Shown: piece by piece, positions 2,331 through 58,559 of the stretch
Layout: each line of letters begins with the position of its first letter
How positions within the stretch are numbered: position 1 is the stretch's first letter
Assembly (NCBI GenBank): GCA_963837465.1
Contig: CAWINB010000004.1
Coordinates: forward strand, 650,853-714,852
DNA from: Candidatus Doudnabacteria bacterium
Lineage (GTDB): Bacteria > Patescibacteriota > Doudnabacteria > UBA920
Length of the DNA: 64,000 nt
Direction of reading: 5' to 3'
Notes under the pieces: generated by a model
Database searches by the model: none
The model's input: the letters and a program-made list of their open reading frames with translations, nothing else
What the model was told of the DNA's origin: nothing
Translations under genes and position numbers: made by a program

Positions 2331-2334
2331 AGAT

Positions 2335-2365
2335 AATATCAAATTACAAATTTCAAATGACAAAT
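2335..2365. repeat. left arm of inverted repeat flanking the 4HB gene (CAAATTACAAATTTCAAAT motif)
   Basis: Reverse-complementary to 2731-2755 (ATTTGATATTTGTAATTTGAAATT). The same motif family recurs at 11382-11488. Confidence 0.6.
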
Positions 2366-2725
2366 GAAAAAAAATTTGACCTTGAAGAGCGGACTGCAAA
2401 ATTCGGGGAATCAACAATTGAGTTTGCGGGATTTATTCCACAAGGGCCTATTACCAACCCCTTAATTAACCAATATGTTAAATCCGGCACCTCAATCGGG
2501 GCAAATTATTGTGAAGCTGATTCAGCAGAATCAAGAAAAGACTTTGAGCACAAAATCGGTATTTGTAAAAAAGAGTCCAAAGAAACCCGCTACTGGTTGC
2601 GTATGATACCAAAAGCCAGACCTGAATTAGACCAAAAGGCCGCGATTCTTTGGAAAGAAGCTAATGAGCTATTATTGATATTTTCCGCGATTATCAAAAA
2701 GTCACGTATTAACGGATCAAAGTAA
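2357..2725 (+). CDS. four helix bundle protein (TIGR02436 / 23S rRNA intervening-sequence protein family)
   Basis: 122 aa with motifs IGANYCEA...SRKDFxHKIGICKKESKETRYWL typical of the family. Flanked by inverted repeats. Confidence 0.7.
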   Translation: MTNEKKFDLEERTAKFGESTIEFAGFIPQGPITNPLINQYVKSGTSIGANYCEADSAESRKDFEHKIGICKKESKETRYWLRMIPKARPELDQKAAILWKEANELLLIFSAIIKKSRINGSK

Positions 2726-2730
2726 TTTAG

Positions 2731-2755
2731 AATTTGATATTTGTAATTTGAAATT
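2731..2755. repeat. right arm of inverted repeat flanking the 4HB gene
   Basis: See left arm (2335-2365). Confidence 0.6.
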
Positions 2756-2781
2756 ATTAATTATGTTATAATTAAGTCGAT

Positions 2782-3237
2782 ATGCAATTTCCCGTGCCAC
2801 AATTTACGGATGTTGAGGATAAAATCATCGGCTCGCTTACGATTAAGCAGTTTGGGATTTTGTTTGGCGTCGGCATTGTCATTTTTTTGGGCTACTCTGT
2901 TTCCAAAAGCATTTTGGTGGCGATATTTTTGTTTTTGTTGTTCGGCGTGCCGGGTCTGGGCGTGGCCTTTGCCAAAATTAACGGCCGGCCCATATACAGC
3001 AGCATAGGCAATTTTATTAAGTTTTTTACCAGTCCCAAAGTCCTGATTTTTCACAAGGAAACTGTAAGTTCGTCGGCATCGACTGCCGCTTTTAAAGACG
3101 CCCAAATGGCCGCGGCCGAAGTAAAAGTCCAGGCTCCTGTTCCGGCCGAAAACACCCAAACGCATCTTAAACAAGTGGAGGAGCTCCTGAGAAAAACATC
3201 AAACCAGGAACAGGAAATGGCTAATAAAATCCGTTAG
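2782..3237 (+). CDS. PrgI-family protein (T4SS/conjugation-associated small membrane protein)
   Basis: N-terminus MQFPVPQFTDVEDKIIGSLTIKQF followed by two TM helices. Matches the PrgI family as found next to VirB4 in Gram-positive and CPR T4SS loci. Confidence 0.6.
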   Translation: MQFPVPQFTDVEDKIIGSLTIKQFGILFGVGIVIFLGYSVSKSILVAIFLFLLFGVPGLGVAFAKINGRPIYSSIGNFIKFFTSPKVLIFHKETVSSSASTAAFKDAQMAAAEVKVQAPVPAENTQTHLKQVEELLRKTSNQEQEMANKIR

Positions 3238-3270
3238 AATCAGGAGTTAGGAATTATGAGTTAGGGTCCT

Positions 3271-3317
3271 CCCTAACCCCTAACCCCTAACCCCTAACCC
3301 CTAACCCCTAACCCCCT
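3271..3317. repeat. tandem heptamer repeat (CCCCTAA)x~6.5, telomere-like, preceded by hairpin GTTAGGG-TCCT-CCCTAAC
   Basis: Direct reading of the sequence. Lies in the 83-bp gap between prgI-like and virB4-like genes. Confidence 0.95.
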
Positions 3318-4004
3318 CTGATGAAACTAGAAATGCAAAAGAAAAATAAGGCGCCCGGGAAAACCACCCAGAGTTTTTTGCGCTTAAGCGAAATTAAAAA
3401 CGATACCGTGGTGGTGGACGACGGCACTTTGCGCGCCATTATTTCCGTTTCCAGCACCAATTTTGATTTAAAAAGCCAGGATGAGCAGAATTCCATCATC
3501 TTTAACTTCCAGCGTTTTTTAAACTCCCTGGATTTTTCCATCCAGATTTTAATGCAGAGCCGCAAAATGGAAGTCGGGAGCTATATTGAAAAACTCCACC
3601 GTTTGGCGGAAAAACAGACTAACGAACTGCTTCGGGTGCAGACGGCCGAATATATAGAGTTCATTAGCCGCCTTATTGAGAATGCCAGCATTATGAACAA
3701 AAATTTTTACATTATTGTTCCGCTTGGCGAAAGCATTTTTCCCAACGCCGCGGGTTTGTTTAGCCGGCTTTTGGGCAACGGGAAATCAAAGGAGATTAGC
3801 CAGAAAATAGAGAACTTTGAAAAGGCCAAGGAAAAATTGGACACCAGGGTGGTGGCGTTAATGTCCAATTTGTCGGGAATAGGCATCCGCGGCCAGCGGC
3901 TTAAAACCGAGGAAATTATCCAGCTCTATTACAACTCCTATAATTTTGAAGAAGCTCCGCTGGTGGATCCTGGGCAGCTTAAAGATATAAAAATCTCCGA
4001 ATAG

Positions 4005-4487
4005 TTATCAGGATACTGATATACCGATATGAATACGAATGATACCAATAATACGGATTCTAACAACCAACGCGGTGAATTAATTCATGGGGATTTAACA
4101 TATAAAATTAACAGTGTATTATTTTCTACCCACAATGAACTTGGTCCTTACGTCAGGGAAAGCAATATGAAGATGTGGCAAAAAGAATATTTAAAGAAAA
4201 AGGCATTGGTTATGAACAACAGGTTTCTATCGGCGATTCAGGTAATATAGTAGACGGCATTATTGATAAAAAGGTTCTTATTGAATACAAGGCCAAAAGG
4301 ATATTAACTAAAGAAGATTATTATCAAACCCAAAGATACCTTCAGGAAACCGGTTTAAAACTCGCTATTTTAGTCAATTTTAGAGATAAATATATTAAAC
4401 CCAAACGGATTATAAAAATAGATAACTGGAAATATTAGAATCAGTATTATTGGTATCATCTGTATCTTATCCGTATATTAGCATCAT
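4005..4487. mobile_element. 483-bp insertion in virB4 carrying the GxxExxY gene, bounded by inverted words GATACCAATAATAC (about 4050) and GTATTATTGGTATC (about 4450)
   Basis: virB4 N- and C-terminal parts are contiguous in homologues. The inverted repeats were read directly. Related repeat words also occur at 52840-52958. Confidence 0.5.
4029..4438 (+). pseudogene. GxxExxY-family protein (PD-(D/E)XK-like) gene, frameshifted, inside the insertion that splits virB4
   Basis: ORF 4029-4250 (LTYKINSVLFSTHNELGPY) and ORF 4175-4438 (YEDVAKRIF...IEYKAKRILTKEDYYQTQRYLQETGLKLAILVNF) together reconstruct the family consensus. The frames differ near 4160-4175. Confidence 0.6.
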
Positions 4488-6359
4488 ATGTCCATATTCA
4501 GTAAAATCAACGAAGAAGAATTAAAGAAAAAGAAGGAGCAGGTCAGCGAGGCCGAGACCGAGCGGAACTTGAGTTCTTCTTTGGGGGATCTGGAAAAAAC
4601 CTATCGCGAAGGCTTGACTACCCTAAAGGATATTATCGCGCCTTCGGCCCTGAAGTTTGAAAGTTCCCACTTTGAAATTAACGGCAAGTTCGGCCGCAGT
4701 TTTTTCGTGCTGGCTTATCCGCGCTTTTTGTCCAGCAATTGGCTGTCGTTTATTATCCAGGCCGAGGGAGCTTTGGATTTGTCCATGTTTATTTATCCCA
4801 TTGATTCCGCCGACATCCTGAAAAAACTCAAGAGCAAAGTCGGTGAAATCGGCTCGCAAATGTCCATTAACCAGGAAAAAGGCATGGTGCGCGACCCGAT
4901 GCTGGAAACCGCTTACAAAGATGTGGAAAGTTTGCGCGACAACCTCATGCAGGGAACGGAAAAATATTTCCGTTTCGCGCTTTACTTTACCATTTACGCC
5001 AACGACTTAAAGGAGCTGGACAAGTTTTCCTCCACTTTGGAAAGTTCTTTGGGAGCCAAACTTATAGTAACCAAGCGCGCGCTTTTGCAAACGCAAAACG
5101 GCCTTAACTCCAGTCTGCCTTTGGGGCTGGATGAACTGGACGTGGCCAACAATATGAACACCGGCCCGCTGTCTTCCTGCTTTCCTTTCGTGTCTTCCGA
5201 TTTAACCAGCAATGACGGAATTTTATACGGCATCAACCGCCACAATAACAGCCTGATTTTGTTCGATCGCTTTGCCATGGAAAACGCCAATTCCGTGGTG
5301 TTTGCCAAGTCCGGGGCCGGTAAATCTTACGCCGTCAAACTGGAAGTTTTGCGCTCGCTTATGGTGGGTACGGACGTTATTATAGTGGACCCGGAAAACG
5401 AGTACCAGCATTTGGCTTCGGCCGTGGGCGGGACTTATTTGAGCGTGTCGCTGAATTCGGAATTCGCGCATCAACCCTTTTGATTTGCCCACGGGCCTTG
5501 AGGGCGAGGACAGCGCCGATATTTTACGCAGTTCCGTCATCAATCTTTTGGGCTTGCTTAGTCTGATGCTGGGAAAACTTGACCCTACGGAAGAAGCGCT
5601 TATGGACAAGGCCATTTGGCAAACCTATGCCAAAAAAGACATTACGCCGCAACTGGAAGATTTTAAAGGCATAGAGCCTCCGACCATGAACGATTTGATA
5701 GAAATTTTAAACGGCATGGTCGGCGCCGAAAGCCTGGCCCAGCGCTTGTTTAAGTTTACCCAGGGTACTTTTGGCGGCTTGTTAAACCAGCCGACCAACG
5801 TGGTGCTGAACAATCAACTTGTAGTATTTAGCATTCGCGATCTGGAAGAGGAACTGCGGCCGATTGCCATGTACATTATTTTAAATTATATTTGGAATAT
5901 TGTGCGTTCGGAATTAAAGCGCCGAATCCTGGCCGTGGACGAGGCCTGGATTTTAATGCAGCACGAAGATTCGGCCAGGTTTTTGTTCGGCATTGCCAAG
6001 CGCGCGCGCAAATATTACCTGGGCCTGACCACCATTACCCAGGACGTGGCCGATTTTCTGGCCAGCCCGTACGGCAAGCCTATTGTCACCAACTCATCCA
6101 TCCAAATGCTGCTTAAGCAGAGTCCGGCGGCCATTAACGTTATCGCGGAAACGTTTTTTTTAACCGAGGGCGAAAAATACCTGCTGCTGGAAAGCGAAGT
6201 CGGCGAAGGCATCTTTTTTGCCGGCCTCAAGCACGCCGCGATTAAAATTTACGCCTCCTACGTGGAAGACCAGATTATCACCACGGATCCCAAACAGTTG
6301 CTGGAGATTCAGGAGAGCCAGGAGAAGTTGAATTAAATTCATGGATATGACAGATGCCA

Positions 6360-6393
6360 CTGTTTTCACAGACGCGCGCGTCTGTGAAAACAG
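6360..6393. repeat. 34-nt perfect palindrome CTGTTTTCACAGACGCGC|GCGCGTCTGTGAAAACAG
   Basis: Direct reading. Lies between virB4 and the giant downstream gene. Confidence 0.9.
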
Positions 6394-6399
6394 GGTTGT

Positions 6400-9300
6400 T
6401 TGTCTGTCCGTGAATTATTTTTTATGGCGGAAGAAGATTCACAATCAAATATAGGCGTAGCCGATGGGCAAGAAGATGCTGTTAGGTCTGACAAACAACC
6501 AGCCGCGTCTAAAAAATTTATCCCATTGTCGGGTAAACCGCAAATTGTCAGATTGGGGGAAAGCTTTTTGGGCGGCCGGGTGTTAATTGTTAATGTTACA
6601 GTTGGCGGCGAGCCTCTTAATAATGGCATCAAGGTTTATAAAGATTCCGAGATTATTTTTACCGGGCGGGGTTTGGATAATTTAGATTTTTGGGAAGTCA
6701 GCCGGGAGGGGCGCGACTCTCTGCCTTTTACCCGTTTTAGAACAAAAAGTCCGTCCTTGGCTGTATTCAGCCCGCAAGACGCGCTTGGCGCTCTGGAAAA
6801 CGGCGAGAGTTTCGGTATTTCTTTTTTTTCCAGCAAGTACGGCGGGACGATGCGCACATTATCGGCGCTTTTTACTTACGAAACCGAGGAAGCGGACGAA
6901 GAAGCCGCCCGGAAGGCTAAAGCCGCGCGGGCGGCGGCGGAGGCGGCGCAGTCGGAGGGCGGAGGCGGAACTTTGGGTATTTCCCAGTTGATTGATGAAA
7001 GCATTGGCGGGGTGGCTAACGCGGTTGGGAGGGGGTTGCGGAGTTCGGCGAGGTCGGCGGTTTCCGGGACCGCAGGGGCTTACGCTGCCGGTTCTCAAAC
7101 TGTCAGCCAAAAATCAACCACGGAAAGTGCCGGAGGTGGAGGGTATGATGAGGAGACAGCCCAAGTCTCAACCGTAAACGTTCCTTCATCTACCATTGAA
7201 GCTTCTTCGGCGGGCACGCGGGTTGTAAGCCAGTCAGGAACTGTGGGCGGGTCACGCGGCGCGGAGATTACTTCTTCGGGTACGGTTTCAGGGTCGGGTG
7301 GCGGTACAATTTCTTCTTCGGGTACGGTTGAACCGCGAACTCGGGTAGGTGCAACTGCCCAGGTTAGTTCAGCGTCCGGCGGCGGACAAACTTTTGGCGG
7401 CGGGACTGTATCTGCCGGTGGTACGGCATCGGCTCAGGCATTTGTGGAAGCCAGGGTTTCGGGATCAGCTTCGGGACAAGCTTCCGGCGGCGGGCAAGTA
7501 TCGGCTTCTGTTTCAGGCGGGGGCGGAGTTTCATCCGGCGGCGGCGGAAATATTTCCGGACAGGCTTCGGTTCAAAGCGGCGGATCCCAAGCCGCATCGG
7601 CGCGGCCGGTTTCGCAAGGTCTCCAGGGAGGGGGAATATCGTCCGGGCGTCAACAGACAGCGCAGGCTCAGTCAGCCGGACAAAACGCCGGCCAGCAGGC
7701 ACAGACAGTGTCTCAAAATCAGGGCGGGCGGGCAGGATCAACAATTTCCGGCACAGCGCAAACAGCCGTTCCTTCTTTTTCATCAGGGACAAACTTAAAG
7801 ACACAAATAGGTGGCGCGGGCGCAACTTCTCCGGCTGTGCCTAAAAGCCGACCTTTGGCATCGGGAGCACCAGCCACGCCTTTGGGTAGTTTACCGCAAA
7901 ATTTTTCGGGTGCCTCGGGAACTTTTCAGCCCGGTTTAAATTTAGGCGCCAGCACACCCGTGGATGGCATCGCGGTAAACCCTCCCGCGGGCATGGAAGG
8001 CACTTTGAATAAGTTTTTTGAAAACCAGTCGGCTTTGGGCAGGTTAGATTTGGGGCCTGCCGAGAATCAAAATCATGAAATTCAGGGTCAGGAAAGTTCT
8101 TTGCCGGACGGGGAGAATGTAACAGAATCATCTGGATCTCCTGCCTCCGATGGCCAGCCGGAAATTTCAGGCTCCCCGGAAACCGAGCCGGATGTCGCGC
8201 CGCCTTTGTCCGAAGCGGGACTTCCGGGCGAAGGCGCGGGTGGCGAAGGTCAGGGTGGTCAGGAAGGCGCGGTCGATTCGGGGGATTCGGGGTCAGGAGC
8301 TCAATCAGGAAATTCGGAGCCGGGAGCGAAAGGGGGATTGAATGGTCAAACAGAAGGCGGCCAGGGAGGCCCGCCGGATAAAAATGCTCCGACCGGAACA
8401 AAGCCGCCGGGGCAAAATCCCGAAGCGACCGGGGCGCCTGACGCTGCCGTTCCGGGACAGCAGCCCGCCGCGGAGGGAGCCGCTCCGGATTCGGCCGAAG
8501 CAGACGCTTTAGCAGGACCTGAAGCAGACGGGGAAGCGGGAGCTGGCGCGGGGCCCGAGGGAGCCGCCGCGGCAGGGGCCGCGCTTTCCGGCGGCGGGCT
8601 TGATGCCGCCGCCGCGTTGGTCAACACGGAAGTAAATAGTCTTCTCACTGCCGCGGCTTTATGGGTCTGGGGATCGGGGATAGTCAGCTGCGGTTTTACC
8701 ATTGTGCTGGGGGCGCTAGTTGGGGATTTTCTCGTGCTGATGAAGAAGCGGTTGGCCAAAAGGGCTGTCAGCGCGCTTTCGGTAACCAGTTTAGGCGCTG
8801 GGATGAAACTGGCTTCATTTTCAAATGACCAACTGGCGGAAAAAATTAAGTTTAATCTGCCGGTTAAGGCCAATATCGCGGCGATGAACGCGGTAGTGGC
8901 AGTTATGATTTTTGGGGCAATATTTTTTTTCGGTGTGGTGTTATACGCCGGCTGTACCTGGCCGTTGGGCCAGTTCATCAGTTCGGCAACCAATTTTAAA
9001 GCCTCCATTATCGGCGGAATGGGTTATTCCAATGTTTGCCAGGATTTTTTATCGTTCCCCGCCGGACTCAGCGGCGCGGCGCAGGGAGCGACTACTGCCG
9101 GACCGGGTGCGCCATCTCCGAGTACTTCGTCTTCCAGGACTTGCAATGTTTTACCTTCCGGCAATGCCAGCGTGGCGCAATTATCTACTACCTGCTTTGG
9201 CGCTAACGCCTACACCGCCGCTGTTGTTGCGGCGCACGAAAGCGGCGGTACTCCGGGTATTGCCAGCGGTACGGATTATTGCCGTAATCCGGATGGTAGT

Positions 9301-11347: not shown

Positions 11348-11381
11348 GTCTGGATTTTATATATTCAGGCAGCTCCAGGTT

Positions 11382-11488
11382 AATTTCAAATTTCCAATTA
11401 CAAATTTCAAATTAATGCCGAGTACCCAATTTTGAATTTGATTGTTGGGGTTTGGTTTGAAATTTGATATTTGCAATTTGGAATTTTT
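11382..11488. repeat. solo copy of the CAAATTTCAAAT inverted-repeat element (no internal gene)
   Basis: Arms AATTTCAAATTTCCAATTACAAATTTCAAATT and TTTGAAATTTGATATTTGCAATTTGGAATT are inverted. Same family as the flanks of the 4HB gene at 2357. Confidence 0.6.
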
Positions 11489-11495
11489 TATTTTT

Positions 11496-12815
11496 ATGCC
11501 TAAAACATCAACAATCTTCGTCTGTTCCAACTGCGGCCACAAGAGTCCCCGCTGGCAGGGCAAATGCCCAAATTGCGGGCAATGGAACACTTTGGAGGAA
11601 AAGCACGAAGCAAAAGCCGGAGGCCGGACTTACAAAGCTTCGCGGATTGTGGATTTGTCTTCCGTGGACGTTGACCAGCGGCCGAGAATAATAACCGGCA
11701 TTGGGGAGTTTGACGAGGTCTTGGGCGGCGGCATTGTGCCGGGCAGTTTGGTGCTCCTGGGCGGTGACCCCGGCATAGGAAAATCCACTTTGGCGCTGCA
11801 GCTTTGCATGAAGGTTAAAGACAGCGTGCTGTATGTTTCGGGCGAGGAGTCGGTTAGCCAGATTAAACTGCGGGCGACGCGGCTGGATAAAAACCACCAA
11901 CTGGGAGTTTTGGCGGAGACCGATTTAGCTGCCATTTTGGCCACAATCCAAAACCAGGATCCGGCGTTGGTAATTTTGGATTCCATCCAAACCATTTACT
12001 CGGCCGAAAGCAGCGGCGTGGCAGGCGGCGTGGCCCAGGTTACCGGCGCGGTACAGCAGGTTATGCGTCTGGCCAAGCAAAACCATATTTCTTTTTTGGT
12101 TATTGGCCATGTAACCAAGGAGGGATATTTGGCCGGGCCCAAGACTTTGGAGCATATGGTGGACACCGTTTTGTATCTGGAAGGAGAACGGTTTGCCAAT
12201 TTCAGGATTTTGCGCTGCGTTAAAAACCGCTTTGGCACCACCAACGAAGTCGGAGTGTTTGAAATGCAGGGGCAGGGGTTGGTGGAAGTAAAAAATCCCT
12301 CCCAACTGTTTTTGGGCGAGGAGCAGTTGCAGGCTTCGGGGAACGTGGTAACTTCGGTTATGGAGGGCAGCCGCGCCCTGCTTTTGGAAATTCAGGCGCT
12401 TACTTCAACTACCAGTTTTGGTTATCCCAAGCGCACTACTGCCGGGTTTGATGTCAATCGTTTACAGTTATTAACCGCCATTCTTTCCAAGCGCGCGGGA
12501 CTGAACCTGTCCAACCAGGATATTTACGTCAACGTGGTCGGCGGCATAAAAATAGACGAGCCAGCCGCGGATTTAGCCGTGGCGCTGGCCATTGTTTCCA
12601 GCCTCAAAGATTCCATAATGTCCGAGACCGTGGCCATAGGCGAACTCGGCCTCTCCGGCGAAGTCCGCTTTGTCCCCAACCTGGAAAAACGCATAAAAGA
12701 AGCCGAAAAACTCGGCTTTAAAAAAATAATCTGCCCGAAAACTAAATTAACATCGCAAAATAAAATTGAGGTGGCGCAGGTTAGGACTTTGGCGGAAGCG
12801 ATTGTGAAAATATAA
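11496..12815 (+). CDS. radA: DNA repair protein RadA/Sms
   Basis: N-terminal zinc finger CSNCGHKSPRWQGKCPNCGQWNT, Walker A GGDPGIGKST, KNRFG motif and a Lon-like C-terminal domain. Confidence 0.9.
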   Translation: MPKTSTIFVCSNCGHKSPRWQGKCPNCGQWNTLEEKHEAKAGGRTYKASRIVDLSSVDVDQRPRIITGIGEFDEVLGGGIVPGSLVLLGGDPGIGKSTLALQLCMKVKDSVLYVSGEESVSQIKLRATRLDKNHQLGVLAETDLAAILATIQNQDPALVILDSIQTIYSAESSGVAGGVAQVTGAVQQVMRLAKQNHISFLVIGHVTKEGYLAGPKTLEHMVDTVLYLEGERFANFRILRCVKNRFGTTNEVGVFEMQGQGLVEVKNPSQLFLGEEQLQASGNVVTSVMEGSRALLLEIQALTSTTSFGYPKRTTAGFDVNRLQLLTAILSKRAGLNLSNQDIYVNVVGGIKIDEPAADLAVALAIVSSLKDSIMSETVAIGELGLSGEVRFVPNLEKRIKEAEKLGFKKIICPKTKLTSQNKIEVAQVRTLAEAIVKI

Positions 12816-15475: not shown

Positions 15476-15552
15476 TGGTGCACCCGGCAGGGATCGAACC
15501 TGCGGCCTTTCCCTTCGGAGGGGAACGCTCTAATCCACTGAGCTACGGATGC
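15476..15552 (-). tRNA. tRNA-Arg (anticodon CCG)
   Basis: Cloverleaf folded by hand: acceptor GCATCCG/CGGGTGC, anticodon loop CTCCGAA, T-loop GGTTCGATCC and a 3' CCA. Confidence 0.85.
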
Positions 15553-15564
15553 TTAATATTCCAC

Positions 15565-15670
15565 AGATCACGGATAAGCACAGATTCACAGATTGATTAT
15601 CCGCTTAGTAGTATTGTTGGAAGAATTTAAATTATCAGATAAATAATCTGCGTATCTGTGTCAATCTGTG
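15565..15670. repeat. about 40-bp imperfect inverted repeat (CCACAGATCAC...CACAGATTCACAGATTGA / TCTGTGTCAATCTGTGATCTGTGG)
   Basis: Direct reading. Lies between tRNA-Arg and the downstream membrane-protein gene. Confidence 0.7.
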
Positions 15671-15681
15671 ATCTGTGGACA

Positions 15682-25886: not shown

Positions 25887-25923
25887 GGGGGTAGGGTATA
25901 GGGGCTAGGGGGTTAGGGGTTAG
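25887..25923. repeat. G-rich flank GGGGGTAGGGTATAGGGGCTAGGGGGTTAGGGGTTAG (GGGGTTA units)
   Basis: Inverted complement of the C-rich flank 26308-26343 on the other side of the 4HB gene. Has at least 4 G-tracts. Confidence 0.85.
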
Positions 25924-25931
25924 AAAAGCAC

Positions 25932-26303
25932 CTAATTGATTGTAGTTGAGCGAAGTTTTTTGATTAGCGCTAGTAGCATTTTTTGTACTTGCAGAAGTAA
26001 TGACTTAGCGATCAAATAATCAAAATTCGGATACAATTTTTCCATCAGTAATATTTGTGTTTCAAGTTCTGCCGTCGATCCAAAAGCTATGCCCAAAAAT
26101 TGAATGAATTCTTTGGTATGGTTCCTCGCGTGGCCTTCTGCTATGTTGGAAGGTATAGAGATGGCAGCTCTTTGTGTTTGTGAACAAAGGCCGTAAAGTT
26201 CGTGTTTAGGAAATTGGCGGGTAATTTTATATATTTCTAATACTAAATCATTAGATTTTTGCCAAACAATTAAGTCTTTGTAGCTTAAGATCTGGTTTTG
26301 CAT
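25932..26303 (-). CDS. four helix bundle protein (TIGR02436 / 23S rRNA IVS protein family), second copy
   Basis: Motifs DLIVWQKS...FPKHELYGLCSQTQRAAISIPSNIAEGHAR...GSTAELETQ, canonical for the family. Confidence 0.8.
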   Translation of the reverse strand: MQNQILSYKDLIVWQKSNDLVLEIYKITRQFPKHELYGLCSQTQRAAISIPSNIAEGHARNHTKEFIQFLGIAFGSTAELETQILLMEKLYPNFDYLIAKSLLLQVQKMLLALIKKLRSTTIN

Positions 26304-26307
26304 ACTA

Positions 26308-26343
26308 TTCCCTAATCTCTATTCCCTAGCCCCTACCATTAGA
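26308..26343. repeat. C-rich flank ATTCCCTAATCTCTATTCCCTAGCCCCTACCATTAG
   Basis: Shares the core AGGGGCTAGGG/CCCTAGCCCCT in inverted orientation with 25887-25923. Confidence 0.8.
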
Positions 26344-57154: not shown

Positions 57155-57269
57155 GCGCGCCCCTCAAGGGCAACCCTCGCGCGGAGGCTTTATATAATTT
57201 AATTATGGCCATATGATTAATTTACTACAAACCTAAACCGGGCGGCGCGAGGGTTGCCCTTGAGGGGCT
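57155..57269. repeat. perfect 24-bp inverted repeat GCCCCTCAAGGGCAACCCTCGCGC separated by 63 nt of AT-rich loop
   Basis: Direct reading. Confidence 0.9.
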
Positions 57270-58513: not shown

Positions 58514-58559
58514 GGTTTCGTGTGCGCTAGCGTACTAGTACGCTAGCGCACACGAAACC
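58514..58559. repeat. 46-bp perfect palindrome GGTTTCGTGTGCGCTAGCGTAC|TA|GTACGCTAGCGCACACGAAACC (copy 3 of the palindromic element)
   Basis: Direct reading. Contains NheI- and SpeI-type hexamers. Related copies at 36744-36787 and 19122-19165. Confidence 0.9.

Follow-up and report, generated by a model that had tools for sequence, protein, structure and literature searches.

The stretch analyzed here, which we call the window, comprises 64,000 nucleotides (nt) of a Candidatus Doudnabacteria bacterium genome (assembly GCA_963837465.1, contig CAWINB010000004.1, positions 650,853 to 714,852 of the forward strand) and contains a short tandem array of the heptamer CCCTAAC between two co-directional genes of an operon resembling those of type IV secretion systems (T4SS). 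Upstream of the array lies a prgI-like gene, assigned from the list of open reading frames (ORFs) and a Pfam PrgI match (E = 1.9e-10), and downstream of it a gene for the N-terminal domain of VirB4 (virB4N), assigned from NCBIfam VirB4-like hits that correspond to the N-terminal part of VirB4/TraC-type ATPases. The gap between the two genes is 83 nt long and consists mostly of the array. The junction is laid out as follows, with the repeat calls taken from Tandem Repeats Finder (TRF):

2782 to 3237, plus strand: prgI-like gene
3233 to 3266, plus strand: 5' arm of a hairpin, with the degenerate heptamers GTTAGAA / TCAGGA / GTTAGGA / ATTATGA / GTTAGGG (from the sequence, the fold and a period-14 TRF row at 3233 to 3265)
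3267 to 3270, plus strand: apical loop TCCT (RNA fold)
3271 to 3315, plus strand: 3' arm, the (CCCTAAC)x6.4 array (TRF and fold)
3321 to 4004, plus strand: virB4N, 227 amino acids (aa)

TRF and direct reading agree on the array at 3271 to 3315, which consists of (CCCTAAC)x6 plus CCC, with all copies perfect (period 7, 6.4 copies, 100% matches, 0 indels). With these matches and the 83-nt gap between the prgI-like and virB4N ORFs, the array noted in this spacer by a preliminary description, made from the letters alone, is real, and so is the hairpin said to adjoin it, with an inverted GTTAGGG unit (3260 to 3266) lying just 5' of the TCCT loop and the array itself being the 3' arm by fold. The 5' arm begins within the final prgI codons, the stop codon TAG (3235 to 3237) falling inside its first heptamer, and nearly all of its deviations from GTTAGGG are G-to-A changes. 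The RNA of positions 3225 to 3335 is predicted to fold at −27.5 kcal/mol (z = −4.9; 0/200 shuffles as stable), with a perfect apical stem of 7 bp, lower heptamers that are paired in part and about 2.5 final array units left unpaired in the 3' arm. Five nucleotides separate the end of the array from the virB4N ATG, and direct reading shows no Shine-Dalgarno sequence. Across the window, the 14-mer CCCTAACCCCTAAC occurs 7 times with up to 2 mismatches, against 0.52 expected (0/100 shuffles reach 7), and the lone CCCTAAC unit is not enriched (9 versus 7.2 expected). As for recurrence of the unit in the genome, the 64-kb window holds one other array of a related unit (25887 to 25923).

Over 50 related genomes share the synteny of prgI followed by virB4N, and in each of two Logan contigs from run ERR10755945 a unique flank is joined to over 4 repeat units, one contig stopping at window position 3300 (L001) and the other beginning at 3286 (L002). 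Both break within the 45-nt array, as expected for a k = 31 assembly, so that the copy number of 6.4 is to be read as that of the source assembly only. Since the synteny and the two flank contigs agree, the array is not a chimeric join, an outcome that the preliminary description had allowed for. An assembly artefact or contamination by eukaryotic telomeres is extremely improbable as well: the more than 120 matches to (CCCTAAC)x4 in a metagenome scan are mostly eukaryote-like mixtures of CCCTAA, CCCTAAA and CCCTAAC, and k-mer contigs do break inside the array, but both flanks are syntenic, both junctions are present in independent contigs, the array is shorter than a typical read, and the inverted GTTAGGG unit and the degenerate 5' arm belong to the same structure as the array. 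In practical terms, k-mer assemblies of short reads are interrupted at heptamer arrays of this kind, which can also pass for contamination by telomeres.

Using a VirB4N profile, we retrieved 55 orthologous loci and mapped prgI, virB4N and the gene for the C-terminal ATPase part (virB4C) in each. The prgI/virB4N spacer ranges overall from 0 to 22 nt up to 575 nt and occurs in three states. It is empty (0 to 22 nt) in many genomes; in many genomes it is 80 to 190 nt long and holds an ORF-less pair of inverted heptamer arrays, each genome having its own unit; and in seven genomes it reaches 460 to 575 nt, with similar arms surrounding a PDDEXK_3 or GIY-YIG ORF. The second state is represented by an 86-nt spacer with GCATTTA x4 / GCTAAMT x5 (L027) and by spacers built from ACGAATN (L003), CGGATNN (L005 and L013) and CATGAAG/TATGAAT (L031) units, the heptamers being unrelated to each other and mostly AT-rich (e.g., GCATTTA, ACGAATN, CGGATNN). 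Among the prgI/virB4N spacers of 40 to 200 nt, 18/26 fold with z < −2 (median, −3.0). Furthermore, the gap between virB4N and virB4C and the gap upstream of prgI are as variable as the prgI/virB4N spacer. The closest relatives (about 85% VirB4N identity, with none exceeding about 86%) carry either an unrelated insert or none at the prgI/virB4N site, and the window element is thus not a conserved regulatory part of the operon. The suggestion of a recombination hotspot holds in so far as the site is a hot spot of insertion and turnover, found empty, with an ORF-less hairpin or with an ORF cassette, but it fits the site and not the heptamer sequence.

Two of these loci bear on the exchange of cargo. 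L004 (5533 to 6000) and L011 (5428 to 6000) have near-identical outer arms (TAATCGCGAAnATACAAA... / ...ATTTGTATATTnGCGATTACT) and different cargo, a GIY-YIG ORF of 94 aa in the former and a PDDEXK_3 ORF of 132 aa in the latter, which implies that cargo can be replaced within a persisting hairpin. In L004, the closest relative, we also observe a solo direct array, (AGTTAGG)x12.1, at 3410 to 3494, directly after a stop codon and with no nearby inverted partner. The 3' end of this array shares 16 identical bases (GGAGTTAGGAATTATG, window 3243 to 3258) with the 5' arm of the window element, and this identity indicates that classes of heptamer unit recur between genomes.

The base composition of the array invites readings that depend on its particular letters. 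On the minus strand there are six GGGG tracts with 3-nt loops, (GGGGTTA)6, which fit the G-quadruplex motif (at least 4 tracts of three or more G, with loops of 1 to 7 nt), and ViennaRNA with its gquad option favors the G-quadruplex (−60.1 versus −48.5 kcal/mol); the sense RNA arm has 60% C and 0% G across 45 nt. A G-quadruplex on the template strand, an i-motif or a C-rich, G-free Rho-utilization site acting on transcription through the junction could be proposed on these grounds. We consider such an action very unlikely, since the family, at the orthologous site as well as at others, mostly uses AT-rich heptamers without G-runs, making the property incidental to the class; the G-quadruplex potential of the preliminary description is thus borne out in silico for this copy but is not a property of the class. 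The array resembles eukaryotic telomeric repeats (TTAGGG / TTGGGG type) in its G-rich TTAGGGG strand and its G-quadruplex potential. Unlike telomeres, it is internal to a bacterial operon that is syntenic in the genomes mentioned above, comprises 6.4 units, is paired with an inverted arm and is unrelated to the ends of a linear replicon. The telomeric character ascribed to it is therefore not upheld; the resemblance is coincidental and, like the G-quadruplex potential, a by-product of the heptamer that this copy uses.

A second reading of this kind is that the array is a simple-sequence repeat that tunes virB4 expression by its copy number, as a phase-variable or attenuating element. The perfect array is prone to slippage and lies close to a virB4N start that has no visible Shine-Dalgarno sequence, and the number of heptamers is variable elsewhere, among Coxiella strains and, in 7-nt steps, among Cyanothece strains. 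We nevertheless consider it quite unlikely. The tract is intergenic and overlaps neither an ORF nor a promoter-like site, whereas the repeats of a contingency locus lie within an ORF or a promoter spacer; a consensus scan found nothing promoter-like or terminator-like on the array or at 3233 to 3320. The hairpin is not followed by a U-tract (the tail reads CCCCTCTGATG) and so lacks the combination of GC-rich stem and U-tract of an intrinsic terminator. In addition, the closest relatives lack the insert or have unrelated sequence in its place. The earlier proposal of an attenuating or phase-variable role in virB4 expression is unsupported, and nothing indicates that such a role is conserved.

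What the junctions have in common is period and layout. In the 635 kb made up of the window and the 55 loci, lag-7 tandem segments number 86, against 0 to 11 for the lags from 4 to 12, and perfect runs of at least 3 copies number 15 at period 7, with a different unit each time, against 0 to 1 at periods 5, 6, 8 and 9; among the 15, the window array ranks third in length. An inverted partner within 900 nt is found for 64/118 lag-7 segments versus 3/118 in a reverse-only control. We catalogued 47 paired elements, with loops either of 0 to 110 nt without an ORF or of about 350 to 430 nt with an ORF of about 120 to 140 aa. The loop ORFs (104 to 139 aa) almost always lie on the operon strand, and the ten that were scanned against Pfam are 23S_rRNA_IVP, PDDEXK_3 or GIY-YIG. 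With respect to strand, the sense fold is the stronger one in 32 of 48 ORF-less elements and the antisense fold in 16 (Wilcoxon, P = 0.008), and G·U pairs make up 167/1731 of the pairs in sense and 109/1660 in antisense folds. This bias of fold stability and G·U pairs toward the sense strand points to selection on the transcript. A family of heptamer arrays thus exists in Doudnabacteria, and the window element has its architecture, with two inverted arrays between co-directional genes and presence or absence at the orthologous site; the junction itself is a variable hot spot of insertion, and outer arms can persist around differing cargo. In the window element, contrary to the family tendency, the sense hairpin is less stable than the antisense one.

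The nearest known counterparts are the intervening sequences (IVSs) of rRNA genes. The helix-45 IVS of the Coxiella burnetii 23S gene is 428 nt long, has a 28-bp stem of terminal inverted repeats that is cleaved by RNase III, and carries an S23p ORF (a four-helix bundle, 4HB) in its loop; two or three tandem GACAGAT heptamers, their number differing by strain, lie upstream of the ORF (PMC4990558). In the Candidate Phyla Radiation (CPR), rRNA genes contain insertions that encode 23S_rRNA_IVP as well as short ORF-less insertions at the classical IVS sites (PMC11270868). Like these, the window element has stem-forming terminal inverted repeats, as its z-score given above indicates, and sibling elements in the window carry a 4HB (S23p / 23S_rRNA_IVP) ORF in the loop (2357 to 2725 and 25932 to 26303). 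Its tandem heptamers recall those at the stem/ORF boundary of the Coxiella IVS, and its short form without an ORF recalls the CPR insertions. It differs from rRNA IVSs in lying between protein-coding genes of a T4SS-like operon and not in a 23S or 16S gene (Rfam returned three tRNAs only for the whole 64-kb window, with no match at the array and no rRNA gene), in having a 4-nt loop without an ORF and arms that are both wholly heptamer arrays, and in having siblings whose cargo may also be PDDEXK_3 or GIY-YIG.

The explanation that we favor, with a probability of roughly 70%, is that the array forms the 3' arm of an IVS-like hairpin that has no ORF, is partly decayed and had one arm recently homogenized by slippage. 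An 83-nt element would have been inserted into a stop/start junction between the prgI-like gene and virB4N that otherwise measures 0 to 22 nt. The family to which it would belong consists of two inverted 7-nt tandem arrays, with the heptamer varying per element and the period and inverted layout remaining constant; the full form has a loop gene co-oriented with the operon (a 4HB "23S rRNA IVS protein," a PDDEXK_3/GxxExxY nuclease fold or GIY-YIG), and the reduced form is a bare hairpin. The element is presumably co-transcribed with the operon and would fold as an RNA stem-loop. The analogy with rRNA IVSs makes this stem-loop a likely substrate of RNase III that would separate or stabilize the flanking cistrons. 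It would be selfish or neutral and not a dedicated regulator of virB4, and any action that it has is most likely exerted as a co-transcribed stem-loop. The perfect array may have arisen by recent replication slippage or homogenization of the loop-proximal unit in one arm. Because the homogenized 3' arm makes A·C mismatches with the older, G-to-A-diverged 5' arm, this copy appears to be decaying as a sense-strand RNA hairpin.

Several observations weigh against this explanation. The window element is the strongest outlier of the strand test, with −23.4 kcal/mol for the sense and −44.1 kcal/mol for the antisense fold; the antisense fold is the stronger one because the deviations of the 5' arm give A·C in sense and G·U in antisense. 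The arms of the second 4HB gene (4HB #2) of the window show the same asymmetry. We read the outlier status as decay, but a function of the antisense strand or at the DNA level is a possible alternative. Solo direct heptamer arrays such as the x12 array of L004 (3410 to 3494) exist, so that an array need not be the arm of a hairpin. PDDEXK_3 genes of other phyla are without consistent heptamer inverted arms, their flanks being heterogeneous, with inverted repeats in 2/4 and a direct 22-nt repeat in 1. Moreover, recent slippage and copy-number variation are deduced solely from the perfection of the array, and RNase III cleavage and co-transcription of the element are predicted by analogy.

The DNA-level alternative can be phrased more specifically: the array pair may be a landing pad or recombination hot spot, in which a cruciform or slipped structure presents the loop as a target where nuclease and 4HB genes home or exchange, and the ORF-less copy in the window would be an empty or vacated site and not an RNA element. 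Such a role is compatible with the IVS-like hairpin, and as an account of the element in its own right we think it somewhat unlikely. The outer arms shared by L004 and L011 around different cargo would fit it well, as would the variable occupation of three junctions of one operon. Two of the three cargo families have nuclease folds used by homing endonucleases, and a strand-symmetric view of the DNA avoids the weak sense RNA fold of the window copy. A pure DNA role, however, does not predict the family-wide sense bias in fold and G·U pairs; 4HB proteins are not nucleases; and no target-site duplications or conserved termini were identified.

Apart from rRNA IVSs, two kinds of repeat bear comparison with the hairpin family. 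Intergenic direct repeats of heptamers, with 7-nt indels and of unknown function, have been described in Beggiatoaceae, cyanobacteria and Bacteroidetes (TAACTGA repeats; MacGregor 2015, PMC4679880). The elements described here resemble such short tandemly repeated repetitive (STRR)-type and TAACTGA repeats in their tandem 7-nt unit, their intergenic position often abutting start or stop codons, their 7-nt length steps and their lineage specificity; unlike those direct repeats, which have one or few units genome-wide, they have, in the 635 kb analyzed, a unit per element, are mostly inverted pairs and are tied to small cargo genes. Elements of the REP/BIME, ERIC and MITE types are likewise small hairpin insertions in operon junctions, presumably co-transcribed and present or absent among close relatives, but the heptamer elements have no sequence common to all copies, and their arms are periodic by 7 nt. 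No association with RAYT or other transposases, no target-site duplications and no conserved termini were seen for the heptamer elements. In the literature searched, with most subscription journals outside its scope, we found no description of an element class outside rRNA that combines inverted heptamer arrays with cargo genes.

Within the window itself, the following siblings of the element are found:

2333 to 2757, plus strand: 4HB gene #1 (2357 to 2725) within inverted CAAATNA / TNATTTG heptamer arrays (33 nt, 85% complementary)
4033 to 4465, plus strand: degraded PDDEXK_3 (GxxExxY) cassette between virB4N and virB4C, with inverted arms at 4033 to 4063 and 4435 to 4465
11381 to 11496, plus strand: ORF-less heptamer hairpin with AATTTCA / TGAAATT arrays and a 40-nt loop, between two co-directional ORFs
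15560 to 15679, no strand assigned: ORF-less hairpin with CACAGAT-type units and 59-nt arms, beside a tRNA gene (15479 to 15552, minus strand)
25887 to 26337, minus strand: 4HB gene #2 (25932 to 26303) with NNTAGGG / CCCTANC-type arms, of the same heptamer class as the prgI-virB4N element

The GGGGTTA unit that had been noticed beside 4HB #2 (25887 to 25923) was recovered by TRF with period 7, 5.1 copies and 77% matches. This array has an inverted CCCTANC-type partner at 26307 to 26337, across the 4HB gene, that had been missed; on the coding strand, the G-rich NNTAGGG-type array is 5' and the CCCTANC-type array 3'. In the PDDEXK_3 cassette, the arms are 31 nt long and 90% complementary, and the ORF is frameshifted into 4029 to 4250 and 4175 to 4438 within a virB4N-virB4C gap of 4005 to 4487, at the same site where L027 has an intact PDDEXK_3 orthologue of 136 aa. 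A further ORF-less hairpin, at 6349 to 6404, follows the virB4C stop, the third variable junction in relatives, and has GACAGAT/CACAGAT-type units. The units of this hairpin and of the one at 15560 to 15679 are the heptamer reported for the Coxiella IVS.

The genes around these junctions are characteristic of the lineage. Of 2435 VirB4N homologues, the best 120 are all about 223 to 237 aa long except one of 286 aa, and the named ones belong mostly to Doudnabacteria (Patescibacteria/CPR). In this lineage, VirB4 is natively encoded by two genes, one of about 227 aa for the N-domain (Pfam TraC-like PF26593) and one for the C-terminal ATPase. Among the loci L003 to L057 they lie between 5 nt and about 1500 nt apart, and the space between them forms a second hot spot of 4HB and PDDEXK_3 cassettes. 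In all relatives virB4C is a single ORF (...S-R-I-N-P-F-D-L-P...), and in the window it is frameshifted by a 1-nt insertion (GGAATTC for GGATTC; 5455 to 5490) into 4488 to 5483 and 5485 to 6336; these two observations rule out a natively three-piece virB4, which was also considered. The independent Logan contig L002 ends essentially at the position of the frameshift, and this coincidence points to a variant bubble or a sequencing error more than to an established pseudogene.

The elements are not confined to operon junctions of Doudnabacteria, which they colonize; with 4HB cargo, they are seen in cyanobacteria and Bacteroidota as well. Among 4HB genes on cyanobacterial and Bacteroidota plasmids (L178 to L185, including Riemerella), inverted heptamer arms are present in 5/8 of those sampled, with one more having 8-nt units. 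These genes sit in tight operon gaps, as in cas6-4HB-cas4 of Anabaena sp. 90 and cas10-4HB-cmr3 of Picosynechococcus; that of Nostoc edaphicum is placed on the strand opposite to its neighbors nrdB and nrdA, with arms of (TAGGGAG)n / (CTCCCTA)5 and lag-7 identities of 0.93 and 1.0. On the coding strand, the five armed plasmid genes have a purine-rich, Shine-Dalgarno-like 5' arm. A link of the plasmid 4HB heptamer arms to STRR-type repeats is possible. A polarity with the G-rich array 5' and the C-rich array 3' holds for GGGTTAG-class copies and the cyanobacterial 4HB cassettes; as a universal rule it was rejected, since it fails for the common AATTTCA-class arms of Doudnabacteria.

In the metagenome matches to (CCCTAAC)x4, an inverted partner was found in 40 cases versus 34 in the reverse-only control, a control that is compromised by nearby direct arrays. 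One JGI metagenome contig with 57% GC (L160, 1 to 560) carries (GTTAGGG)x13, a 4HB ORF of 125 aa on the minus strand and then CCCCTAATCCCTAACC. It shows the same heptamer and polarity as the window, with an expanded CCCTAAC array 3' on the coding strand, in an unrelated organism of higher GC content, and it is the only clear prokaryotic 4HB cassette with a CCCTAAC unit in the scan; in L152, a 4HB ORF lies about 1.9 kb from the array.

The window array alone is an ordinary member of its class with little bearing on virB4 regulation, and the class matters more. It ties together rRNA IVSs with their 4HB/S23p proteins, the high-copy GxxExxY and GIY-YIG genes of CPR, cyanobacteria and Bacteroidota, and intergenic heptamer repeats. 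Tentatively, and with some doubt, we suggest that heptamer-array hairpins could be a widespread unrecognized class of mobile or recombinogenic scaffold. If so, this scaffold would underlie the intergenic STRR-type heptamers known from cyanobacteria, Bacteroidota and other groups; it would host interchangeable 4HB/S23p, PDDEXK_3/GxxExxY and GIY-YIG genes in operon junctions and, as "IVSs," in rRNA; and its ORF-less form, exemplified by the window copy, would remain in place as a signal for processing or stability at which polycistronic mRNAs are cut into pieces. In that case, the empty, hairpin-only and cargo-bearing states of the prgI/virB4N/virB4C operon would make up a natural time series in Doudnabacteria. 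With dozens of orthologous T4SS-like junctions in Doudnabacteria, the origin, mobility and cargo exchange of the elements are testable by comparative genomics, and RNA processing by biochemistry.

Further repeats were observed elsewhere in the window. Direct heptamer arrays of CAAGTTC x3, AAGTTGA x2.6 and CAAATGC x2.7 lie at 532 to 625 within a predicted ORF of 367 aa (23 to 1126) that has no match in Pfam or NCBIfam; either the ORF call extends across an array that is in fact intergenic, or the coding sequence tolerates the heptamers. Two intergenic, GC-rich repeats are of a different kind from the heptamer elements, namely, an inverted repeat at 57159 to 57268, with 24-nt arms of 100% complementarity placed 62 nt apart, and a perfect palindrome of 46 nt at 58514 to 58559.

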